DNA from: Desulfurococcales archaeon
GTDB lineage: Archaea > Thermoproteota > Thermoprotei_A > Sulfolobales > WANQ01
Assembly (NCBI GenBank): GCA_027030065.1
Contig: JALVFK010000086.1
Coordinates: 18,479-82,478, forward strand
Length of the DNA: 64,000 nt
Direction: 5' to 3'
Both the position numbers and the translations under genes were made by a program. Below are positions 3,920-39,110 of this stretch, in pieces. The first letter of the stretch is position 1. Each line of letters begins with the position of its first letter. Under the pieces are notes generated by a model that worked only from the letters and a program-made list of their open reading frames with translations, made no database searches and was not told the DNA's origin.

Positions 3920-6739
3920 ATGAATTTAAAACTAATAGGAATTCTATCTCTACTACTAATAATACTACCAACGTTCGCGGTATTCGCTCAAGCCCAACAA
4001 GAAATCAAGGGCCCACCCCTAGACCAGATAATATACACTGTTAGAACAACGATAGACAGAGGAGTCCTTGACGTAGCAGATGGTAAGATAGACGCGTTTC
4101 TATGGACGGTCTCACCAAGAGACCTTAAACAAATACCAGTTGATCTGGCAAAGCTCAAGCTAATACCTTCATCAAGCTCACTCAACGCGCTATTATTCAA
4201 CCCCTATAGTGATGAGGACGAGGCTGGTAAGTGGGGTGTAGCAACAGACATTGACGATAATACAAAGCACTTCAACCCATTCGCAGTAAGAGAAGTAAGA
4301 TTCGCTATGAACTGGCTAATTAACAGGAGATACATCATAGACAACATAATGGCTGGTGGAGCCAACCCAATGTATTGCCCAATAGGTCCAAGCCACCCAG
4401 CATACCCGCAAATAGAATCTGCACTCAAGGAGCTAGGGTTAACAGATACTGGTGACGAGGCAAAAGCTATACAAATGATAACCAATGCTCTCCAGAACGC
4501 CTCACAGCACCTAGAGGCACTAGGCTACAAGCTCTACAAGGCAGATGATGGTTTCTGGCACTTCCAAGCACCAGGACAGGACGACGAACCCGTAACAATA
4601 ACATTTCTCATTAGAATCGAGGACGAGAGAAGAGACATTGGTCATTACGTAGCCGATCAGTTAGAGAAGGCTGGCATAAAGGTCAACCGTATGGAGATAG
4701 AGAGAGGACAAGTATTCGCACTAGTATACGGTAAGGATGCTAGAACCTTAGACTGGCACATTTATACAGAAGGATGGATAAGCACAGCTGAGAGCCCATG
4801 GATCGAAGGAGACCTAGCATGGTACTACAGCCAGTGGGGTGGCCCACTACCAGGCTGGGGTACCTGGGAGTACACGCCAGACCACGCTAAGGCTATAGGA
4901 GACAATATTCAGCCAAAGATAGAGGAACTAACACTAGACCTATACCAGGGCAAGTATAAGGGCGACCAATACTGGGAGGTTGCCAGAGAAATAATAAAGC
5001 TGGGAATTGAGGAATCAATTAGAGTATTCCTAACAGAGAACCTAGCATACTTCCCAGTCAACCCAAGAGTACACGACATAGCAGCTGGTAGAAGCACTGG
5101 TCTAGCAACAATATGGCCCTTCAGAACAGCATGGACAGATGACGGAGTACTTCTAGTAGCCCAGTATTCATCACGTGGAGCATTATTCATGAGTGCTTGG
5201 AACCCGGTAGGCGGTATTAATGACATCTATGCAAGCAATATATGGAGATATGTAAGAGACTATGGAGGCTACTGGCATCCGTCAACTGGTATATACATAC
5301 CAATAAGAGTAACATGGAAAGTACAAGTAGAGAACATGACAGTACCAGGTGACGCACTAATATACAACCACTCAGCCCACAAGTGGCAGACACTTGATGA
5401 AGCTGGTGTAACAGACCGCAATGCTACAGTAAAGGTAATATTAAACTACAAGTTCAGCAACTGGCACGACGGTAGACCAATGACACTATTCGATATACTA
5501 GAATCAATAGCATGGAACTGGGAGTGGAGCTACCAGGACGGTGCAGACGACATATGGTACCACGACGAAGTAGCAAGCACTGGACAACCATACTTCAGCA
5601 CCATAAAGGGCATAGAGATAATAAACTCAACAGCAATAGCATTCTATGGCAACTATACTCATCCAATAAGTGAGTCAGAGACAGCAAGCTACTACATATG
5701 GTGGCCAACCTTCCCACTAGAAGTAATGGCTGCAATGGAGTACTGTGTACTATACAAGGGACCAGTAAGCGGTGAAACCTATGGCTGGTTTGAGGGAGAT
5801 GCTGGCAGATGGATAGACGCACTAGACCCAGACCACTTAACAGACATAACAGCCGCACTAGAACAGAAAGTAGAGACTGGAGAATACATGCCACCATACC
5901 TAGCAGCAACCTACGACCTAGCTAAGAAGTACCCAGTAATAGGGTCAGTAGACCTAGCAGACGCTGCTAAGAAGGCATTAAACTTCTACAAGGAATACGG
6001 ACACCTAGTAATAAGCAACGGTCCATTCTACATAGCTAAGTATAACCCAACAGAACTATACCTAGAGCTCAAGGCCTTCAGAGACCCAACATATCCATTC
6101 ACACCAGACTACTGGAGAAACAAGCTAATACTAAGCACTCTATTCATACAAGAAGTATCGCTGCCAACACAGATACTAGCTGGACAGAGCATACCAGTAA
6201 CAGTAAAGGTCGGTGAAAACGTACAGTTCCCAGAAACAGAGAAGGGTACTAGACCAGCAGAATTCGCTTATGTCGACGTAGCGTTAATAGCACCAGACGG
6301 TACTGTAGTAGGAGTATGGTCTGCTAACAAGACAGACATAGGTGTATGGCAGGCAACAATACCTGGTAGTGCCACCAAGAACTTAGCAAGTGGTACATAC
6401 ACAATAGAGATTAGAATAGGAAGAGAACCCGGCGTATACCAGGTAACCGAGAAGAAGCAGATAACAATAATAGGAATACAAGTAACAACAACACCTACAA
6501 CTGCACCAACAGTAACTGCACCGACAATCACGCAGCCAACTACAACTGCACCATCACCAACAACAAGTGTTAGCCCAACAGTAACAGTACCCTCAACAAC
6601 GTCGCCAGCTACATCAGTACCAACGGTAACAACGATAACACCTACTGGTCCAGGAATAAGTCCAACAGTAATCATAGGGATAGCAATAGTCATAATAATC
6701 ATAGGTATTGCAGCAGCCTTCCTAGTAAAGAAGAAGTAA
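3920..6739 (+). CDS. ABC transporter substrate-binding protein, family 5 (Opp/Dpp-type), C-terminally anchored
   Basis: Signal/TM 'LIGILSLLLIILPTFAVFAQA', a large family-5-like body, and a Thr/Pro-rich linker 'TTTPTTAPTVTAPTITQPTTTAPSPTT' followed by a TM helix and 'KKK'. First gene of a 5-gene ABC operon. Confidence 0.85.
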   Translation: MNLKLIGILSLLLIILPTFAVFAQAQQEIKGPPLDQIIYTVRTTIDRGVLDVADGKIDAFLWTVSPRDLKQIPVDLAKLKLIPSSSSLNALLFNPYSDEDEAGKWGVATDIDDNTKHFNPFAVREVRFAMNWLINRRYIIDNIMAGGANPMYCPIGPSHPAYPQIESALKELGLTDTGDEAKAIQMITNALQNASQHLEALGYKLYKADDGFWHFQAPGQDDEPVTITFLIRIEDERRDIGHYVADQLEKAGIKVNRMEIERGQVFALVYGKDARTLDWHIYTEGWISTAESPWIEGDLAWYYSQWGGPLPGWGTWEYTPDHAKAIGDNIQPKIEELTLDLYQGKYKGDQYWEVAREIIKLGIEESIRVFLTENLAYFPVNPRVHDIAAGRSTGLATIWPFRTAWTDDGVLLVAQYSSRGALFMSAWNPVGGINDIYASNIWRYVRDYGGYWHPSTGIYIPIRVTWKVQVENMTVPGDALIYNHSAHKWQTLDEAGVTDRNATVKVILNYKFSNWHDGRPMTLFDILESIAWNWEWSYQDGADDIWYHDEVASTGQPYFSTIKGIEIINSTAIAFYGNYTHPISESETASYYIWWPTFPLEVMAAMEYCVLYKGPVSGETYGWFEGDAGRWIDALDPDHLTDITAALEQKVETGEYMPPYLAATYDLAKKYPVIGSVDLADAAKKALNFYKEYGHLVISNGPFYIAKYNPTELYLELKAFRDPTYPFTPDYWRNKLILSTLFIQEVSLPTQILAGQSIPVTVKVGENVQFPETEKGTRPAEFAYVDVALIAPDGTVVGVWSANKTDIGVWQATIPGSATKNLASGTYTIEIRIGREPGVYQVTEKKQITIIGIQVTTTPTTAPTVTAPTITQPTTTAPSPTTSVSPTVTVPSTTSPATSVPTVTTITPTGPGISPTVIIGIAIVIIIIGIAAAFLVKKK

Positions 6740-18559: not shown

Positions 18560-18723
18560 ACAAGACTATATGAGTACTTGTATGTAATTCCTTCTAAAAC
18601 AACGCCATACTCCAAGAGTATTTCTACACAAGTCACATAATAACCTAAATGCGTTCTCAAGAATAAAGCTCCCAGATAGTATGAGTAGTGCACTATAACG
18701 TAATAGTAATATTATCTTCCTAG

Positions 18724-18782
18724 TTATCCTTGTCATCCTACTCAATACCCAATTGCCTGGGCGTGTAGGTAGACAAGGATAA
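18724..18782. repeat. 18-bp imperfect inverted repeat / long hairpin upstream of the Cas6-like gene
   Basis: TTATCCTTGTCATCCTAC (18724-18741) pairs with GTAGGTAGACAAGGATAA (18765-18782): 16 of 18 positions pair, with a 2x2 internal mismatch and a 23-nt loop. Confidence 0.7.
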
Positions 18783-18845
18783 TTTTGTAGAAACTAGCTT
18801 ATATTAGACGCTGAAAATACTCTTTAACTAGAGGATAGGGTTTTA

Positions 18846-19766
18846 ATGGTACTAATAGGAGGATTTGATAGAATACTATTATCGGCATCACCACGCAAGT
18901 ATACTTTAATTGAAGTATGTCTAAGAGTTGAGAAGAACGTAGTACTGCCACCCTTTACAGGCAAAGTACCCAAGAGTCTCTTAATAATAGGTAACTCTAA
19001 ACTATATGATATATTTGAAAAACCATTTATAGTGGAATATGATGGTGCTAAAATACAAGTTCCTAAACCCCTCCGAGTAACGCCACTATATATTCGTAAT
19101 AATGGGGATGTAAAGTACTTGTGGAAAAAGAAAAGTGGGGGGCCATCATTAAGGCTTAGGAAGGATACTACTGCTTGCTTTAAGATAGGATTTGAGGAGG
19201 GGTTGGAGAGAGACATATATTACGCTGTAGCAGGCATGGATAATGCTGTTCTCTTTGACGCGAAATGGATTATAGAAAGTGTTAGAGTTGAAAAATCATT
19301 TAAACTCCCATCACAGTATCCTGGAGTATCATTAGAGAATATTAGTGGTGTTAGGGTTTTCTTCCGGTCGCCCATAAAACTCGTAGACCCCTGGAAAAAG
19401 ACACGATACGGTAGGTTTCTACCAATAGCGGGAGTATTATTTGCATACAATATCGGTGAATTATTGAGACTGTTGAAGAGAGACATAGAGTACTGGTATG
19501 TTGTAAGCATGGTTTCAGCAGCTCTTCGCGAAACCCACAGGATATGGGAGACCGTTAAGAAAACAACCTATGTCTACGATGGGAAAGAACTCCCGGCATT
19601 ATCGGGTTACGCTACCTACCTAGTAGACGACGAGATAATAAACGGTATTAGGGGGTTTAGAGTATTCCTTGAAAACATTATTGCACACGCAATGGTAATG
19701 GGGATTGGAAGTAGTAGGGCAATAGGATTAGGTCACGTCGACATATACTTGTTGGAGAGAAACTAG
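18846..19766 (+). CDS. Cas6-like RAMP protein (orphan, no array nearby)
   Basis: C-terminal glycine-rich loop 'MGIGSSRAIGLGHV' (GxGx5GxG as in Cas6), N-terminal 'YTLIEVCLRVEKNVVLPPFTGKVPKSLL', and a mid-protein 'VFFRSPIKLV' strand. About 300 aa. Confidence 0.5.
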   Translation: MVLIGGFDRILLSASPRKYTLIEVCLRVEKNVVLPPFTGKVPKSLLIIGNSKLYDIFEKPFIVEYDGAKIQVPKPLRVTPLYIRNNGDVKYLWKKKSGGPSLRLRKDTTACFKIGFEEGLERDIYYAVAGMDNAVLFDAKWIIESVRVEKSFKLPSQYPGVSLENISGVRVFFRSPIKLVDPWKKTRYGRFLPIAGVLFAYNIGELLRLLKRDIEYWYVVSMVSAALRETHRIWETVKKTTYVYDGKELPALSGYATYLVDDEIINGIRGFRVFLENIIAHAMVMGIGSSRAIGLGHVDIYLLERN

Positions 19767-19805: not shown

Positions 19806-19817
19806 TTTATTATTTTT
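19806..19817 (+). promoter_or_regulatory. TATA-box candidate for the low-complexity cassette
   Basis: TTTATTATTTTT is centred about 38 nt upstream of ATG 19849. A GGGTGA Shine-Dalgarno-like element lies 5-10 nt before the ATG. Confidence 0.35.
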
Positions 19818-19848
19818 GTGCAACTGCACAGAATTCTTGGGTGAAAAT

Positions 19849-20154
19849 ATGGCCTGGTGGTATGGACCCGGATACGGCTTCGGATGGGGATGGCGTGGAG
19901 GAAAAGGTGGATGGGGTAGAGGAGGCTGGCGTGGATGGGGATGGAGTAGTCCATGGCCTGGTAGAGGACCCTTCAGCTACCTACCACCGTGGCAGAGACC
20001 CGGCTGGTATCTAGGTAGAGGATTCTGCAGATGGTATTATGGATGGGGCTGGTGGCGCTGGCCAACTCCATGGTACTGGAACATACCAACATATCCAGTA
20101 TATCCGCCATACACTTCCTACACCTATCCGCCATACCCGTGGTGGAGGTGGTAG
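19849..20154 (+). CDS. Trp/Gly/Arg/Tyr/Pro-rich low-complexity protein (101 aa, about 21% Trp)
   Basis: ATG at 19849 preceded by GGGTGA. 'GFGWGWRGGKGGWGRGGWRGWGW' repeats and a PY-rich tail, with no Asp/Glu. The ORF track start at 19816 is probably too early. Confidence 0.6.
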   Translation: MAWWYGPGYGFGWGWRGGKGGWGRGGWRGWGWSSPWPGRGPFSYLPPWQRPGWYLGRGFCRWYYGWGWWRWPTPWYWNIPTYPVYPPYTSYTYPPYPWWRW

Positions 20155-20158
20155 GGAA

Positions 20159-20374
20159 ATGAGCTACCCATACCCCTACCCACTCTATCCTCCCGCGTAC
20201 CCCTATCCATACCCGTTGCCAGTAGATCCAGCATATATGATGTACTGGATGATCCAGTGGATAACATATCCATACTATTATGCGCTAACACTAGAAATGT
20301 ATAAGACAATGATAGAGGTTTGGAAGAAAACACTAGAAGCATTAACTAAAACACTAGAACAGAAAACAAGCTAA
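20159..20374 (+). CDS. Pro/Tyr-repeat protein with C-terminal amphipathic helix (71 aa)
   Basis: In-frame ATG 4 nt after the previous TAG, preceded by GGAGGTGG. 'YPYPYPLYPPAYPYPYPLP' then 'LEMYKTMIEVWKKTLEALTKTLEQ'. Confidence 0.5.
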   Translation: MSYPYPYPLYPPAYPYPYPLPVDPAYMMYWMIQWITYPYYYALTLEMYKTMIEVWKKTLEALTKTLEQKTS

Positions 20375-20386
20375 GAGAGGATAACC

Positions 20387-20749
20387 ATGTACTGGTGGTA
20401 TAGGTTTTGGAGAAGAATGATGTATTATCCACCACCGCCCCCACCAATCTATTATCCACCTTACCCCTATCAATACCCCTATCAGCAAACCCCCCAGCAA
20501 GCACAGCAACCACAAACTCAGCAGCAACAACAGCCAATACCTCTAACACCATATTATCCACCCATGCCGATGCCACCACTACCACCATATCCGCAGACAC
20601 CAGAAGAAGAACTAGCAATGCTTGAAGAATACAAGAAGGCATTAGAAGAAGATCTAAAGGATCTCCAAGAAGAGATTAAGAGCGTAGAGGAGAGAATCAA
20701 GGAATTAAAGAAAATCATTGAGGAAAGGAGAAGAAATACCCCATTCTAA
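20387..20749 (+). CDS. aromatic/Pro/Gln-rich protein with C-terminal coiled coil (DUF5320-like)
   Basis: 'MYWWYRFWRR', 'PPPPPP', 'QQTPQQAQQPQTQQQQQP', then the heptad coiled coil 'EEELAMLEEYKKALEEDLKDLQEEIKSVEERIKELKK'. Confidence 0.65.
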   Translation: MYWWYRFWRRMMYYPPPPPPIYYPPYPYQYPYQQTPQQAQQPQTQQQQQPIPLTPYYPPMPMPPLPPYPQTPEEELAMLEEYKKALEEDLKDLQEEIKSVEERIKELKKIIEERRRNTPF

Positions 20750-20772: not shown

Positions 20773-21927
20773 TTAGTCTAGAGGAGAATAACCTGTTCTA
20801 AGTATTCTACGATACTCTAGATCCGTTTCCTTCATCTTGATGATCCTTGCCTTCACTACACCGTTCTCAAGAGTTGTAACTTGAGCTAATGCTACATGTA
20901 CTCCGAGCTTATCCATATATTCTATGAATTCGTCTAGTACTTTTATGTCTGGTACCCTTATAATGTATTCCTCGTATACAGCTCCTCCTTCTTCTATCAA
21001 CTTTATACTATCAATTGCTGGTTTTAGTATCGATAAACCGAGTCTCTTAGCTCTCTCTTCGAGTTCCTCTTCACTTAATCCTTCTTCATAGATCTTCCAT
21101 ATCTCACGTAGTATCCGTGAGAAAAGGAATCCTCTGCCTTCATCAAAGGGGTATTTCATTCCAAGCTCTAAGTCGTGAAAATGTGTATAGCTTGTAGTAT
21201 ACTTTAATGCTTTTACACGATGCTTGGGGTCCTTTAACACTATTCCCTCTCGCTCTTCTCTCTCAAGCTTACGGATAATCTCTTTCACAGAATCTAGATC
21301 GTTTTTATCTATGACTCCAAGTCTTCTAACACGCTTTAATCCAACATCATCTATTATCTCGTTTCTCTCTGTTACTGGTATGAAGAATCTACCACGCATT
21401 ATATCGAATACATAGTAGTCGAAGGTAGGAGCTTCCGGATAATAATGTTGTACATAGGGGTTTTCAGTCCCAATAACCTCACCGCATACAACAAGGTCTT
21501 CTCCATATTTTTTAAACAAGTTTCTCAAGAACTCCTCGTAAAGCATTCTTATCCTAGCAGTAGTGTATGGGCATATGTATCCTCCACGCGTAATAGCTAG
21601 TATTTGATCGGCGAACAATACTACTCTAACATTATATCCGTCAAGTTTTTCTTCAACTACTACGTCGTCTATGAAGTGTCTAGGTATTGCTTTAAGTAAT
21701 AGAATTCTCTGAATACTAGGATAACCATGTACTATCCTAACTTCTCCATCCTTAACAAGTATTGTTGTACCCTCCCTAAACTTCTTCCACTCACGTCTAA
21801 AGACTAGATAACCTATACCATGATACTCCATTGGTCTAAGCGTACGCCTCTCTATAAGGTCTTTTAGGACTCCTTCCTCTATGCCTAGCTTATTGGAAAC
21901 ACTCTTAAGTATATTATTAAGAGCCAA
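20773..21927 (-). CDS. ATP-dependent RNA ligase, Rnl3 (Pab1020) family
   Basis: Nucleotidyltransferase motif I 'VVEEKLDGYNVRV'. About 380 aa, with the N- and C-terminal domain layout of archaeal RNA ligases. Confidence 0.8.
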   Translation of the reverse strand: MALNNILKSVSNKLGIEEGVLKDLIERRTLRPMEYHGIGYLVFRREWKKFREGTTILVKDGEVRIVHGYPSIQRILLLKAIPRHFIDDVVVEEKLDGYNVRVVLFADQILAITRGGYICPYTTARIRMLYEEFLRNLFKKYGEDLVVCGEVIGTENPYVQHYYPEAPTFDYYVFDIMRGRFFIPVTERNEIIDDVGLKRVRRLGVIDKNDLDSVKEIIRKLEREEREGIVLKDPKHRVKALKYTTSYTHFHDLELGMKYPFDEGRGFLFSRILREIWKIYEEGLSEEELEERAKRLGLSILKPAIDSIKLIEEGGAVYEEYIIRVPDIKVLDEFIEYMDKLGVHVALAQVTTLENGVVKARIIKMKETDLEYRRILRTGYSPLD

Positions 21928-22020
21928 TTCTGCTTAAACCCTAGAGCCTTTACTTAACAAAGACTAATAATCCTAACTATACATTACCAGGAAAGATACC
22001 TCATAGACACACCTATAAAG

Positions 22021-22085
22021 TCAGCCGAGGGTACTCAACCACACCTAGAGTAAGGGGGTTCTTCGGCCCTAAAGCGTCTCATCAT
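22021..22085 (-). ncRNA. C/D box-like sRNA candidate (weak second half)
   Basis: Minus strand reads ATGATGA-gacgctttaggg(12)-CCGA ... gagtaccctcgg-CTGA, 65 nt in total, in a GC-rich island. No convincing C' box. Confidence 0.3.
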
Positions 22086-22186
22086 CCTTAGAGATTACTG
22101 GGTAAAACAGTTTATTTATACTTGTCTCAACGCTACAATATAGTAGGTATATAGTTAATAAATACTACCTAGTCAAGCAGAAGATA

Positions 22187-22879
22187 ATGAGGGTACCATG
22201 GTGGTGCTCTATGATGGTGTTCGTCATTGATACTAGCGGTATAACTGATCCAAGGCTTAGAGAAGCGCTAGGTGTATCTAGTCTAGAGGAAGTCGTCGAT
22301 AAACTAGCAGATCTAATGACTACTGCGAGGATAAAACTGGGTATGACCTTCTACATGCCTCCTTCAATGTTTGAGGAATTGAAGAGATTCCTATTGAGAA
22401 ACAATGTCAGAGTAGAAGTAGTAAACAAGCTCGCAGCAGTACTAGTCGTTAAAGCGCCGGATAAGATTCGAACCCAGATACCAGCAATTGTTATGTCAAA
22501 GTATGTTGAAGAAATAGCTAAGCGCTTATTTAAGGGTCTAAGAGTAGCTGAAGAAAGTGTTAGAAAGACTGCAAGAACATTTGCAAAAACTGGTTCCGAT
22601 AGGAGTAGAGGATTCGAGAAAAGCCGTGTAGACAAACTTGTAGGCGATATAATACACGATCTAAGAGAAAAGTATCGAGAAGCAACACGAAAGGGGGTAG
22701 TAGACACCGTTGTAGATTTTGATGCAGTAATGTTAGCCGTAGAGCTACGTGCAACTATGGTTACAAACGATGAAGGCATAAAGAGGCTTTGCGAAGACCT
22801 CGGTATAATAGTTGTAGACCCATTAACATTTCTCGAAATGCTTAAACGCTTCCAAGAATATGCGGAAAGATCAAGATAA
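22187..22879 (+). CDS. PIN-like protein, HARP / RNA-free RNase P (UPF0278) homolog
   Basis: 'MVFVIDTSGITDP' (true start probably ATG 22211/22214), 'GLRVAEE', 'LREKYREATRKG' and 'VTNDEGI'. These closely match motifs I recall from Aquifex Aq_880. Confidence 0.7.
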   Translation: MRVPWWCSMMVFVIDTSGITDPRLREALGVSSLEEVVDKLADLMTTARIKLGMTFYMPPSMFEELKRFLLRNNVRVEVVNKLAAVLVVKAPDKIRTQIPAIVMSKYVEEIAKRLFKGLRVAEESVRKTARTFAKTGSDRSRGFEKSRVDKLVGDIIHDLREKYREATRKGVVDTVVDFDAVMLAVELRATMVTNDEGIKRLCEDLGIIVVDPLTFLEMLKRFQEYAERSR

Positions 22880-23893
22880 GGTCTCCTTAATTACCTTTAA
22901 GACGTGTTCTAATAACTCGTTTACGCCATAGCCTTTCGCCGCACTTATAGTAAAAACCTTCCCTATGCCCTTACTTAGTAGATAGCCTTTTATCTTCTCG
23001 AACTTCTCTTCGTCAACATCATCTATTTTATTCAACGCTACTACTATGGGCTTGTCAAAGCGCTTGACTATGTCTTCGAAAACGCGTGCTTGTTCTTCAA
23101 TACTATAATAGCAATTCCTTGATACATCGAACAAGTATACTATAACTCCTTTCAAATGCTTTAAAGCCATTATTGCTTGTAGTTCTATAGGATTTCGATC
23201 CTCTAATGGTCTATCAAGTAGTCCAGGAGTATCAATAGCCTGTACCACTAGGTAATCGTTTATTCTTATATGTCCTAGTACAAGGCTTTTTGTTGTAAAG
23301 GGATAAGGTGCTATTTCGGGGGAAGCAGTTGAAATCTTCTTTACAAGTGTTGATTTACCTACCTGAGGCATACCAGCAACTATAATCGTCGGCTTCTCTG
23401 GATCTATACTCGGTATCTTTCTCAGTCTGGGAATATTATCTGCTAGAAAGTCAATGTACTTCCTATTCCTCTTGAGAACACTCATTATCCTTCCTATACC
23501 CTCACGCCTATATCTCTTAGCTTCACGTAGAGTTGGAGCAGTTTTTACGAGTTCTAGATAGCTCCTATATATTTTGTCAACTAGTTTAAGAGCTCTAGCT
23601 AACCGTGTTACAGCGTCCTTATAGTCCTTATATCCCACTAAGACATCAAGGAGGTCACGGTAGAAGGGATGTATGCGGTCGATGAAGGGTAGGCTGTAGA
23701 CTATTTTCTTTAACTCGTTTGAAACTATATTATACACGGTATTCAACTTATTGATTTCATAAGCTCTAGCCCTCCTAGCACCCCTTATCTTCCCCCTAGA
23801 GCCTTCAATTAGCTTCCTATATCTCCTAGTAATTTTTCCCACAATCTCATTATACCTTGGTATTCTCGGTAACTTCTCGTACGGTGATGCCAT
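22871..23893 (-). CDS. NOG1-type GTP-binding protein
   Basis: NOG1 N-terminal helical domain with G1 'GMPQVGKST', G3 'DTPGLLD' and G4 'NKID'. Confidence 0.9.
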   Translation of the reverse strand: MASPYEKLPRIPRYNEIVGKITRRYRKLIEGSRGKIRGARRARAYEINKLNTVYNIVSNELKKIVYSLPFIDRIHPFYRDLLDVLVGYKDYKDAVTRLARALKLVDKIYRSYLELVKTAPTLREAKRYRREGIGRIMSVLKRNRKYIDFLADNIPRLRKIPSIDPEKPTIIVAGMPQVGKSTLVKKISTASPEIAPYPFTTKSLVLGHIRINDYLVVQAIDTPGLLDRPLEDRNPIELQAIMALKHLKGVIVYLFDVSRNCYYSIEEQARVFEDIVKRFDKPIVVALNKIDDVDEEKFEKIKGYLLSKGIGKVFTISAAKGYGVNELLEHVLKVIKETLS

Positions 23894-38876: not shown

Positions 38877-39110
38877 TTATATATAACTTATATACTGGTT
38901 GATATTTCGGTACTTAATTACCTTGTAGACTCCTATACTCCTTCTTTCTACAAATCCGAGTTTTTCTAGTGCAGCTAGTATTCTTCCAGCCGATTTCGTT
39001 GAAATGCCGAGTTCTTCTGCAAGTTCTCTTACTCTAATCCACTTTTTCTTTTTGCTGAGTCTTTCGCCAAACTTAACGAGATCTATTGTTATAGATAGAT
39101 GTTTACGCAA
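38877..39110 (-). CDS. small winged-helix DNA-binding protein
   Basis: 'IRVRELAEELGISTKSAGRILAALEKLGFVERR'. Confidence 0.65.
   Translation of the reverse strand: MRKHLSITIDLVKFGERLSKKKKWIRVRELAEELGISTKSAGRILAALEKLGFVERRSIGVYKVIKYRNINQYISYI

Follow-up and report, generated by a model that had tools for sequence, protein, structure and literature searches.

The locus considered here raises the question of what a Cas6 endoribonuclease is for when its gene stands alone. In a 64-kb stretch of a Desulfurococcales archaeon (the window; 64,000 nucleotides (nt) of GenBank:JALVFK010000086.1, assembly GCA_027030065.1), an initial reading made from the letters alone, hereafter the sequence-only reading, had noticed one open reading frame (ORF) for a Cas6-like repeat-associated mysterious protein (RAMP), and had left two options: that the protein serves distant CRISPR arrays in trans, or that it was recruited for non-CRISPR RNA processing. 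Our analysis favoured the first option. With a probability of roughly 0.7, the gene encodes a functional, free-standing Cas6 of the crenarchaeal, Sulfolobus-like and histidine-independent kind, which acts in trans on the precursor CRISPR RNA (pre-crRNA) of arrays located elsewhere.

Identity and isolation of the cas6 gene

The ORF has the extent and the length of 306 amino acids (aa) ascribed to it by the sequence-only reading, lies on the + strand and ends in ...HAMVMGIGSSRAIGLGHVDIYLLERN. Comparison with the PADLOC models revealed almost full-length matches to the Cas6 profiles PDLC01122 (E 8.1e-31, residues 19-300) and PDLC01127 (E 1.2e-29). Structure prediction, which had been proposed as a check for tandem ferredoxin folds, gave an AlphaFold2 model (16 homologues as input; mean predicted local distance difference test score 86.3, predicted template modelling score 0.88) consisting of two beta-alpha-beta-rich halves, i.e. 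the tandem RAMP/ferredoxin-like domains, similar to the RNA recognition motif, that characterize Cas6. When this model was compared with the PDB using Foldseek, ranks 1-33 were all occupied by the Cas6 family (Cas6, Cas6b, Cse3/Cas6e and Cas6-containing complexes). At the top stood the Sulfolobus solfataricus Cas6 (SsoCas6) structures 4ILM/4ILL (Sso2004, 'non-structured CRISPR RNA') and 3ZFV (Sso1437), with E 4e-15 to 1e-13 and TM 0.61-0.74 (single best match, E 4.1e-15, TM 0.66-0.74), followed further down by Cas6 of Thermus, Streptococcus and Pyrococcus. The full-length PADLOC match and the predicted fold matching SsoCas6 thus bear out the earlier assignment: the window gene encodes a genuine Cas6.

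The motifs on which that assignment had been based are present, namely an LPxxxG pattern at residues 34-39 in VVLPPFTGK, the strand FFRSPIKLV (residues 173-181) and a C-terminal glycine-rich loop, G286-I-G288-SSRAI-G294-L-G296, which fits the GxGxxxxxGxG pattern of the Cas6 family. In profile alignment this loop lies opposite GIGRSRGIGFG of SsoCas6, with R291 paired with Sso R269, and G286, G288, R291, G294 and G296 are invariant in 16 family members. Altogether, stand-alone and array-adjacent members have 49 invariant alignment columns in common. Invariance in 16 sequences was also observed for K40 and K43, and K74 is invariant as well, while position 247 (K247) is mostly K/R. In the predicted model a helix (alpha1, residues 40-49) comes after strands 17-28 and 32-34, and K40 opens this helix. 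SsoCas6 is without a catalytic histidine and relies for its activity on Lys25, Lys28, Lys51, Arg231 and Arg269 (Reeks et al., PMC3652601), the R269A substitution lowering activity at least 10-fold (PMC3652601). Judging from spacing and position, K40 and K43 would be the counterparts of the catalytic Lys25 and Lys28; K74 and K247 are tentatively matched with Sso Lys51 and Arg231/232. By motif spacing, K40/K43, K74, position 247 and R291 may thus together form a site equivalent to that of SsoCas6.

The window is coding-dense, with about 40% G+C. Its longest non-coding stretch, defined as lying outside ORFs of at least 70 aa, measures 286 nt (estimated at about 290 nt in the sequence-only reading) and is situated directly 5' of cas6. 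No CRISPR array was found in the 64 kb by Tandem Repeats Finder, by a direct-repeat search or by a k-mer array detector, the last being the same one that readily picked up arrays in related loci. Neither tRNA genes nor Rfam matches were found in the window. A PADLOC scan of 71 non-overlapping window ORFs detected no cas family besides Cas6, apart from a weak Csa3/CARF/CasR signal (E ~5e-6), and the Cas proteins of a related type I-A locus had no detectable relative in the window. The source of the weak signal is most probably a 77-aa ORF (Table 1), which of all ORFs in the window best matched a Csa3 profile built locally; the signal was not seen among 20 window ORFs scanned singly. This ORF was rejected as a second cas gene, as it matched only in the winged-helix (helix-turn-helix) part and is without a CARF domain. 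Since the three repeat searches, the PADLOC scan and the search with type I-A Cas proteins agree, the description of cas6 as an orphan within 64 kb, with neither an array nor another cas gene, is upheld.

Relatives inside and outside CRISPR loci

A word-indexed search of 5.8 billion proteins returned 16 clusters belonging to this Cas6 subfamily, and profile searching with HMMER, run exhaustively on 1.84 billion representatives, gave 115 matches, 25 of which were at E <= 1e-30. Within a species-representative genome collection, the subfamily occurred only in metagenome-assembled genomes (MAGs) of uncultured Desulfurococcales, Desulfurococcaceae, Pyrodictiaceae and 'Thermoprotei'. Its members (P0001-P0016 and P0017-P0044) are nameless in public sources, the sole named one being a 'hypothetical protein'.

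Members with 36-47% identity to the window protein are typical cas genes, situated in complete type I-A loci or next to arrays. In L016 and L037 (related loci carry the prefix L), the order is array, Csa5 (Cas11a), Cas7a, Cas5a, Cas8a, Cas3', Cas3'', Csa3, Cas6, Csa3, Csa1, Cas1, (Cas2, Cas4), array, and the Cas6 of loci of this type shares 43-44% identity with the window protein. Variants of this locus were found in L008, L017, L038 and L039, and the type I-A set (Csa5/Cas11a, Cas7a/Csa2, Cas5a, Cas8a and Cas3'/Cas3'') lies beside the family member in L016/L037 and L038/L039. At low identity, effector genes (Cas7a and the Cas3 helicase, variously with Cas5a, Csa5 or Csa3) occur near cas6 in L024, L027 and L040, and adaptation modules adjoin it in L022, L046 and L051. 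Arrays immediately flank cas6 in L008-L011, L016, L017, L039 and L048, and an array is directly 5' of the gene in L011, L023 and L048. The family-associated 24-nt repeats, read on the crRNA strand, are GTAATAACAATAAAGAATTGAAAG and ATAAAACTACAAAAGAATTGAAAG; they terminate in ATTGAAAG, the expected crenarchaeal 8-nt handle, and are predicted to be unstructured, consistent with the structural likeness to the Sulfolobus enzymes. Association with arrays and cas operons, absent for the window gene in its 64 kb, is therefore present for its relatives.

In several family loci without effector operons, it was also noticed that an archaeal ATPase_2 gene (PF01637, with DUF234) adjoins cas6 and/or the array (L015:3569-9876; L011:2453-3574; L025:10885-14952; L048 and L052). 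Some of these loci also hold a radical-SAM gene, 54% identical between lineages. This recurrent small neighbourhood may represent CRISPR-linked accessory genes.

The closest relatives, with at least 56% identity, form a clade in which cas6 occupies a fixed place in the order HMG-CoA reductase, PGK, GAPDH, Usp, thioesterase, (124-aa ORF), cas6, RNA ligase (PF09414), PIN_5 and NOG1 GTPase. This housekeeping position is shared by the window, L001 (identical protein), L012 (98%), L013 (89%), L002/L003 (82%), L028 and L034 (80%), and L005-L007 and L014 (57%), i.e. it has been held across genus-level divergence, and no array was found in up to 10 kb of flank at any of these loci. Between the window and L005, Cas6 is 57% identical, compared with 70% for PGK, 69% for GAPDH, 61% for Usp, 64% for thioesterase and 71% for RNA ligase. 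As the divergence of Cas6 is close to that of its neighbours, these values indicate vertical co-inheritance of cas6 with the housekeeping genes since before the lineages separated; the syntenic genes fall on both sub-branches of the close clade when a neighbour-joining tree is drawn. The one exception is L015/L035/L055 (59% identity), in which a stretch of 1.5 kb, occupied only by a radical-SAM gene, separates cas6 from an array of 46 repeats, and no other cas gene is present within 10 kb of cas6. This arrangement shows that the close clade is still linked to CRISPR arrays, although already uncoupled from effector operons.

Could the stable position instead reflect a role outside CRISPR? An exapted Cas6 would process one or more host RNAs, such as a non-coding RNA with a repeat-like site or the hairpin upstream of the gene, and a host-RNA role would explain the fixation of the gene among housekeeping genes. 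Consistent with this are the persistence of cas6, over genus-level divergence, between genes of central metabolism and of RNA metabolism (the Rnl3-type RNA ligase, PIN_5 and NOG1), the lack of any array or cas gene within 64 kb, and the very stable hairpin of the window strain. This hairpin, to which the sequence-only reading had pointed, is an inverted repeat of 11 bp plus 5 bp and folds at -30.8 kcal/mol (z -5.8). Its role as a candidate substrate did not stand: in L012 and L001, whose Cas6 proteins are 98% and 100% identical to that of the window, both stems are altered without compensating changes, the L012 counterpart folds at only -14.6 kcal/mol (z -1.5), and the hairpin is absent from the 57% clade, whose spacer is only 53 nt. 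We therefore rejected it as a structured RNA or a Cas6 substrate; conceivably it terminates the 124-aa gene upstream of it in this strain alone.

Further evidence also counts against exaptation. No solitary repeat-like site above chance was found in the window, all motifs shared with array-adjacent relatives are kept, and the sister lineage just described retains an array 1.5 kb away. RNA ligase, PIN_5 and NOG1 are syntenic with cas6 in all close relatives, but the link is loose, as three unrelated ORFs intervene between cas6 and the RNA ligase gene in L005; a functional link to these three genes is thus unlikely. In addition, ligases of the Rnl3 type connect a 3'-OH with a 5'-phosphate and are not known to accept the ends produced by Cas6 (2',3'-cyclic phosphate and 5'-OH). 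Recruitment for non-CRISPR RNA processing has accordingly found no positive support here, and we regard it as unlikely. Its more specific form, in which cas6 would have moved out of the mobile CRISPR-Cas locus in this Desulfurococcales/Pyrodictiaceae lineage to become a domesticated and vertically inherited gene with its own promoter, whose product processes host RNA and which may persist even in array-less genomes, appears rather less likely still.

Weighing action in trans on distant arrays

For a free-standing Cas6 acting in trans, we envisage that 1) cas6 would be transcribed from its own promoter at the stable chromosomal position among housekeeping genes, 2) the protein would act on pre-crRNA from CRISPR arrays elsewhere in the genome, 3) it would bind the unstructured repeat of about 24 nt (family repeats, crRNA strand, ...AAGAATTGAAAG), 4) it would cut 8 nt before the 3' end of the repeat without metal ions, leaving the 5' handle AUUGAAAG, and 5) type I-A Cascade and/or type III effector complexes, in which Cas6 would not be a stable subunit, would take over the crRNAs. 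A candidate repeat RNA substrate, alongside the host's own repeats, would be ATAAAACUACAAAAGAAUUGAAAG. Here we infer catalytic competence, the cleavage site, and the presence of arrays and effectors elsewhere in the source genome. What favours service to distant arrays is the occurrence of relatives in type I-A loci or beside arrays, the 59% relative located 1.5 kb from the 46-repeat array, the invariance of putative motifs for the active site and for RNA binding, and ratios of nonsynonymous to synonymous substitution rates (dN/dS) of about 0.06-0.09.

Several observations weigh against this reading. First, the profile evidence for Cas6 is divided, since the PADLOC matches are not matched by Pfam and TIGRFAM, whose models all scored below their curated cut-offs (Cas6_N, 21.2 bits against 27; CRISPR_Cas6, 21 bits against 25; TIGR01877, 17.4 bits against 58.65); a plain sequence search of the PDB with the window protein gave nothing significant and a profile search was marginal (E 0.03), so that a structural search was needed. 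Second, the equivalence of the catalytic residues is a putative one, drawn from motif spacing. Third, neither arrays nor effector genes could be connected with the source genome or with any MAG in which cas6 stands alone among the housekeeping genes: searching with a profile of Cas7a/Csa2 gave 510 matches, three of which were traced to other assemblies (GCA_900175145.1, GCA_027046105.1 and GCA_028285835.1), and among the 120 matches listed of the 510 none was linked to contigs carrying stand-alone cas6. Fourth, in L028 and L029 (L028:9726-10648, GCA_053988575.1; L029:3766-4688, SRR32938003), the loss of 1 nt from a run of A (TGGAA-AAAAC) breaks cas6 into ORFs of 101 aa and 215 aa, suggesting that the gene is dispensable in that lineage. 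The deletion could be a real lineage loss, or a homopolymer error common to two assemblies of the same data. Such a frameshift would sooner be expected of a defence gene that can be lost than of an RNA-processing gene that is essential, and in this respect it also speaks against a host-RNA role.

The same frameshift, together with the lack of cas genes and arrays nearby, would be expected if the window gene were an unused leftover of a lost CRISPR-Cas locus and were decaying. Selection and conservation argue otherwise. Pairwise dN/dS values, calculated by the Nei-Gojobori method, were 0.059 for the window and L012 (dS 0.12), 0.066 for the window and L013 (dS 0.85) and 0.092 for L005 and L014, i.e. 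low over synonymous divergence from 0.12 to saturation, whereas array-adjacent pairs gave 0.096-0.108. The stand-alone cas6 is thus under strong purifying selection, at least as constrained as its array-adjacent relatives, and no other lineage with the gene at the housekeeping position has a disrupted ORF. Moreover, the 55 nt 5' of the ATG are nearly invariant in relatives of 82-100% protein identity, while the spacer further 5' diverges freely. Based on the archaeal TATA-box consensus and on spacing, this block, which contains a TATA-like TTATATTA and a GAGGA, probably provides cas6 with a promoter and a ribosome-binding site of its own, transcription being predicted to begin near 18827-18830. 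As far as these patterns can tell, the window cas6 is a maintained gene, predicted to be independently expressed, and a decaying relic is highly improbable.

A further possibility is a non-catalytic paralogue resembling Cas6nc of Pyrococcus furiosus, which would act as a chaperone or regulator of repeat RNA while another Cas6 elsewhere does the cleaving. The catalytic sites of Cas6 are plastic and rates are very low, which has led to proposals of chaperone-like roles (PMC3652601); the Foldseek matches include PfuCas6nc (3UFC), and the equivalents of Sso Lys51 and Arg231 in the window protein are only tentative. On the other side, K40/K43, K74 and R291 are invariant and common to members that are the sole cas6 of complete type I-A loci (e.g. 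L016), and no MAG with a second family member was found in the species-representative scan, which would miss other Cas6 subfamilies. A non-catalytic role therefore seems very unlikely. Taken together, conservation of the active-site motifs, low dN/dS, a sister lineage with its array close by and the absence of any conserved candidate substrate in the vicinity weaken all three alternatives to a trans-acting Cas6.

Further features, significance and known counterparts

The coordinates of the features are listed in Table 1. The region directly 3' of cas6 contains small ORFs whose composition is extreme, including one of 112 aa rich in Trp, Gly, Pro and Tyr and another of 120 aa rich in Pro, Tyr and Gln with a C-terminal coiled-coil-like tail; for neither did any Pfam family exceed the threshold. 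At the corresponding position in L002 and L028, small ORFs without annotation (67-144 aa) are called, the match being by position alone. Remnants of an array between cas6 and the RNA ligase gene were considered and rejected, as low-complexity ORFs rich in Pro, Tyr, Trp and Gly were found there instead. The genes for the RNA ligase (here with Lig_C), the PIN_5 protein and the NOG1-family GTPase follow 1-4 kb 3' of cas6. Elsewhere in the window, a degenerate tandem repeat with a 15/69-nt period (ACTGCACCAACA...) is contained within an ORF of 939 aa.

Table 1. Coordinates of cas6 and of other features in the 64-kb window
Feature	Position	Strand	Basis or remark
cas6 coding sequence	18846..19766	+	ORF, 306 aa and stop codon; Cas6 endoribonuclease standing alone, of a Desulfurococcales subfamily with type I-A association
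K40-V-P-K43 codons (K-x-x-K)	18963..18974	+	Putative counterpart of SsoCas6 Lys25/Lys28
Glycine-rich loop codons G286-IGSSRAIGL-G296 (GxGxxxxxGxG), with R291	19701..19733	+	Invariance and alignment to SsoCas6
Upstream block with TATA-like element (18799-18806) and GAGGA (18831-18835, ends 10 nt before ATG)	18790..18845	+	Conservation among relatives
Longest non-coding stretch	18560-18845		Outside ORFs of at least 70 aa
Hairpin	18724-18782	+	Rejected as Cas6 substrate
Small ORFs of extreme composition	19816-20749	+
RNA ligase (Rnl3-type, PF09414), PIN_5 and NOG1 genes	20773-23893
77-aa ORF	38880-39110	-	Match to Csa3 profile; rejected as second cas gene
Degenerate tandem repeat	6492-6633	+	Inside the 939-aa ORF
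939-aa ORF	3920-6739

Location of cas6 apart from other cas genes has already been documented for crenarchaeal type I-A/III systems (PMC4005679, PMC4390879, PMC5965381), so that the present finding is correct but ordinary. Processing of pre-crRNA in trans by a free-standing Cas6 has been described for Thermoproteus tenax and Sulfolobus and is established for crenarchaeal Cas6. In the Sulfolobales, cas6 'is often transcribed separately' (PMC4390879), and in S. islandicus REY15A a single Cas6 processes the crRNAs used by three interference complexes, one of type I-A and two of type III-B (PMC4390879); adjacency of cas6 to arrays or cas operons is not obligatory in type I-A/III (PMC4005679, PMC4390879). 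The arrangement is thus of a known type, and what is added is a poorly annotated member of the Cas6 family, representing a subfamily which standard annotation pipelines miss because the Pfam and TIGRFAM Cas6 models stay below threshold. The value lies mainly in annotation: CRISPR-Cas inventories of Desulfurococcales MAGs would under-call crRNA processing capacity. The subfamily is small, with about 115 cluster representatives in 1.84 billion, all from uncultured hyperthermophilic Desulfurococcales. The locus also provides a clean evolutionary example of how, in these archaea, cas6 can part from arrays and effector modules and remain at the same chromosomal position in different genera while being strongly constrained by purifying selection, in agreement with the established view of a free-standing Cas6 supplying several effector complexes. 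A new mechanistic question would arise only if the genomes with the gene turned out to be array-less altogether.

Among known enzymes, P. furiosus Cas6 (3I4H, 3PKM) resembles the window protein in overall fold (Foldseek E 5e-9 to 3e-7) and is a single free-standing enzyme, wrapping repeat RNA that is unstructured and supplying several effector complexes. It differs in sequence (about 10-12% identity) and in its Tyr31/His46/Lys52 triad (PMC3652601), no equivalent catalytic His being evident in the window protein.

The closest counterparts are the S. solfataricus enzymes (Sso1437, 3ZFV; Sso2004, 4ILL/4ILM/4ILR), which share with the window protein 1) the tandem RAMP/ferredoxin-like fold, being the best structural matches, 2) the C-terminal glycine-rich loop, alignable together with its conserved Arg, 3) a K-x-x-K at the beta1/alpha1 junction with spacing equal to that of Lys25/Lys28, and 4) a crenarchaeal, type I-A/III-associated setting in which the repeats are unstructured and terminate in AUUGAAAG; the enzymes of Sulfolobus work free-standing. 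However, sequence identity is only 16-18%, and the window protein exceeds the Sso enzymes in length by about 15-25 residues; its N terminus is extended, and an insertion at about residues 58-72 is modelled with low confidence. Its loop reads SSR in place of RSR (first Arg to Ser), and the invariant His281 of its family, just before the loop, is without a described counterpart in Sso. In addition, cas6 genes of Sulfolobus are generally in or near cas cassettes, whereas the window cas6 is alone.

With respect to gene location, the comparison is with the type I-A system of Thermoproteus tenax. This organism belongs to another order, Thermoproteales, and the arrays and effector operon are known in its genome, those of the window's source genome being putative. 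Both are crenarchaeal, and in T. tenax, too, cas6 is encoded away from the Cascade operon; its Cas6 is not a Cascade subunit and its crRNAs carry an 8-nt AUUGAAAG tag (PMC4005679). By analogy, T. tenax is a direct precedent for the genomic arrangement of the window cas6.

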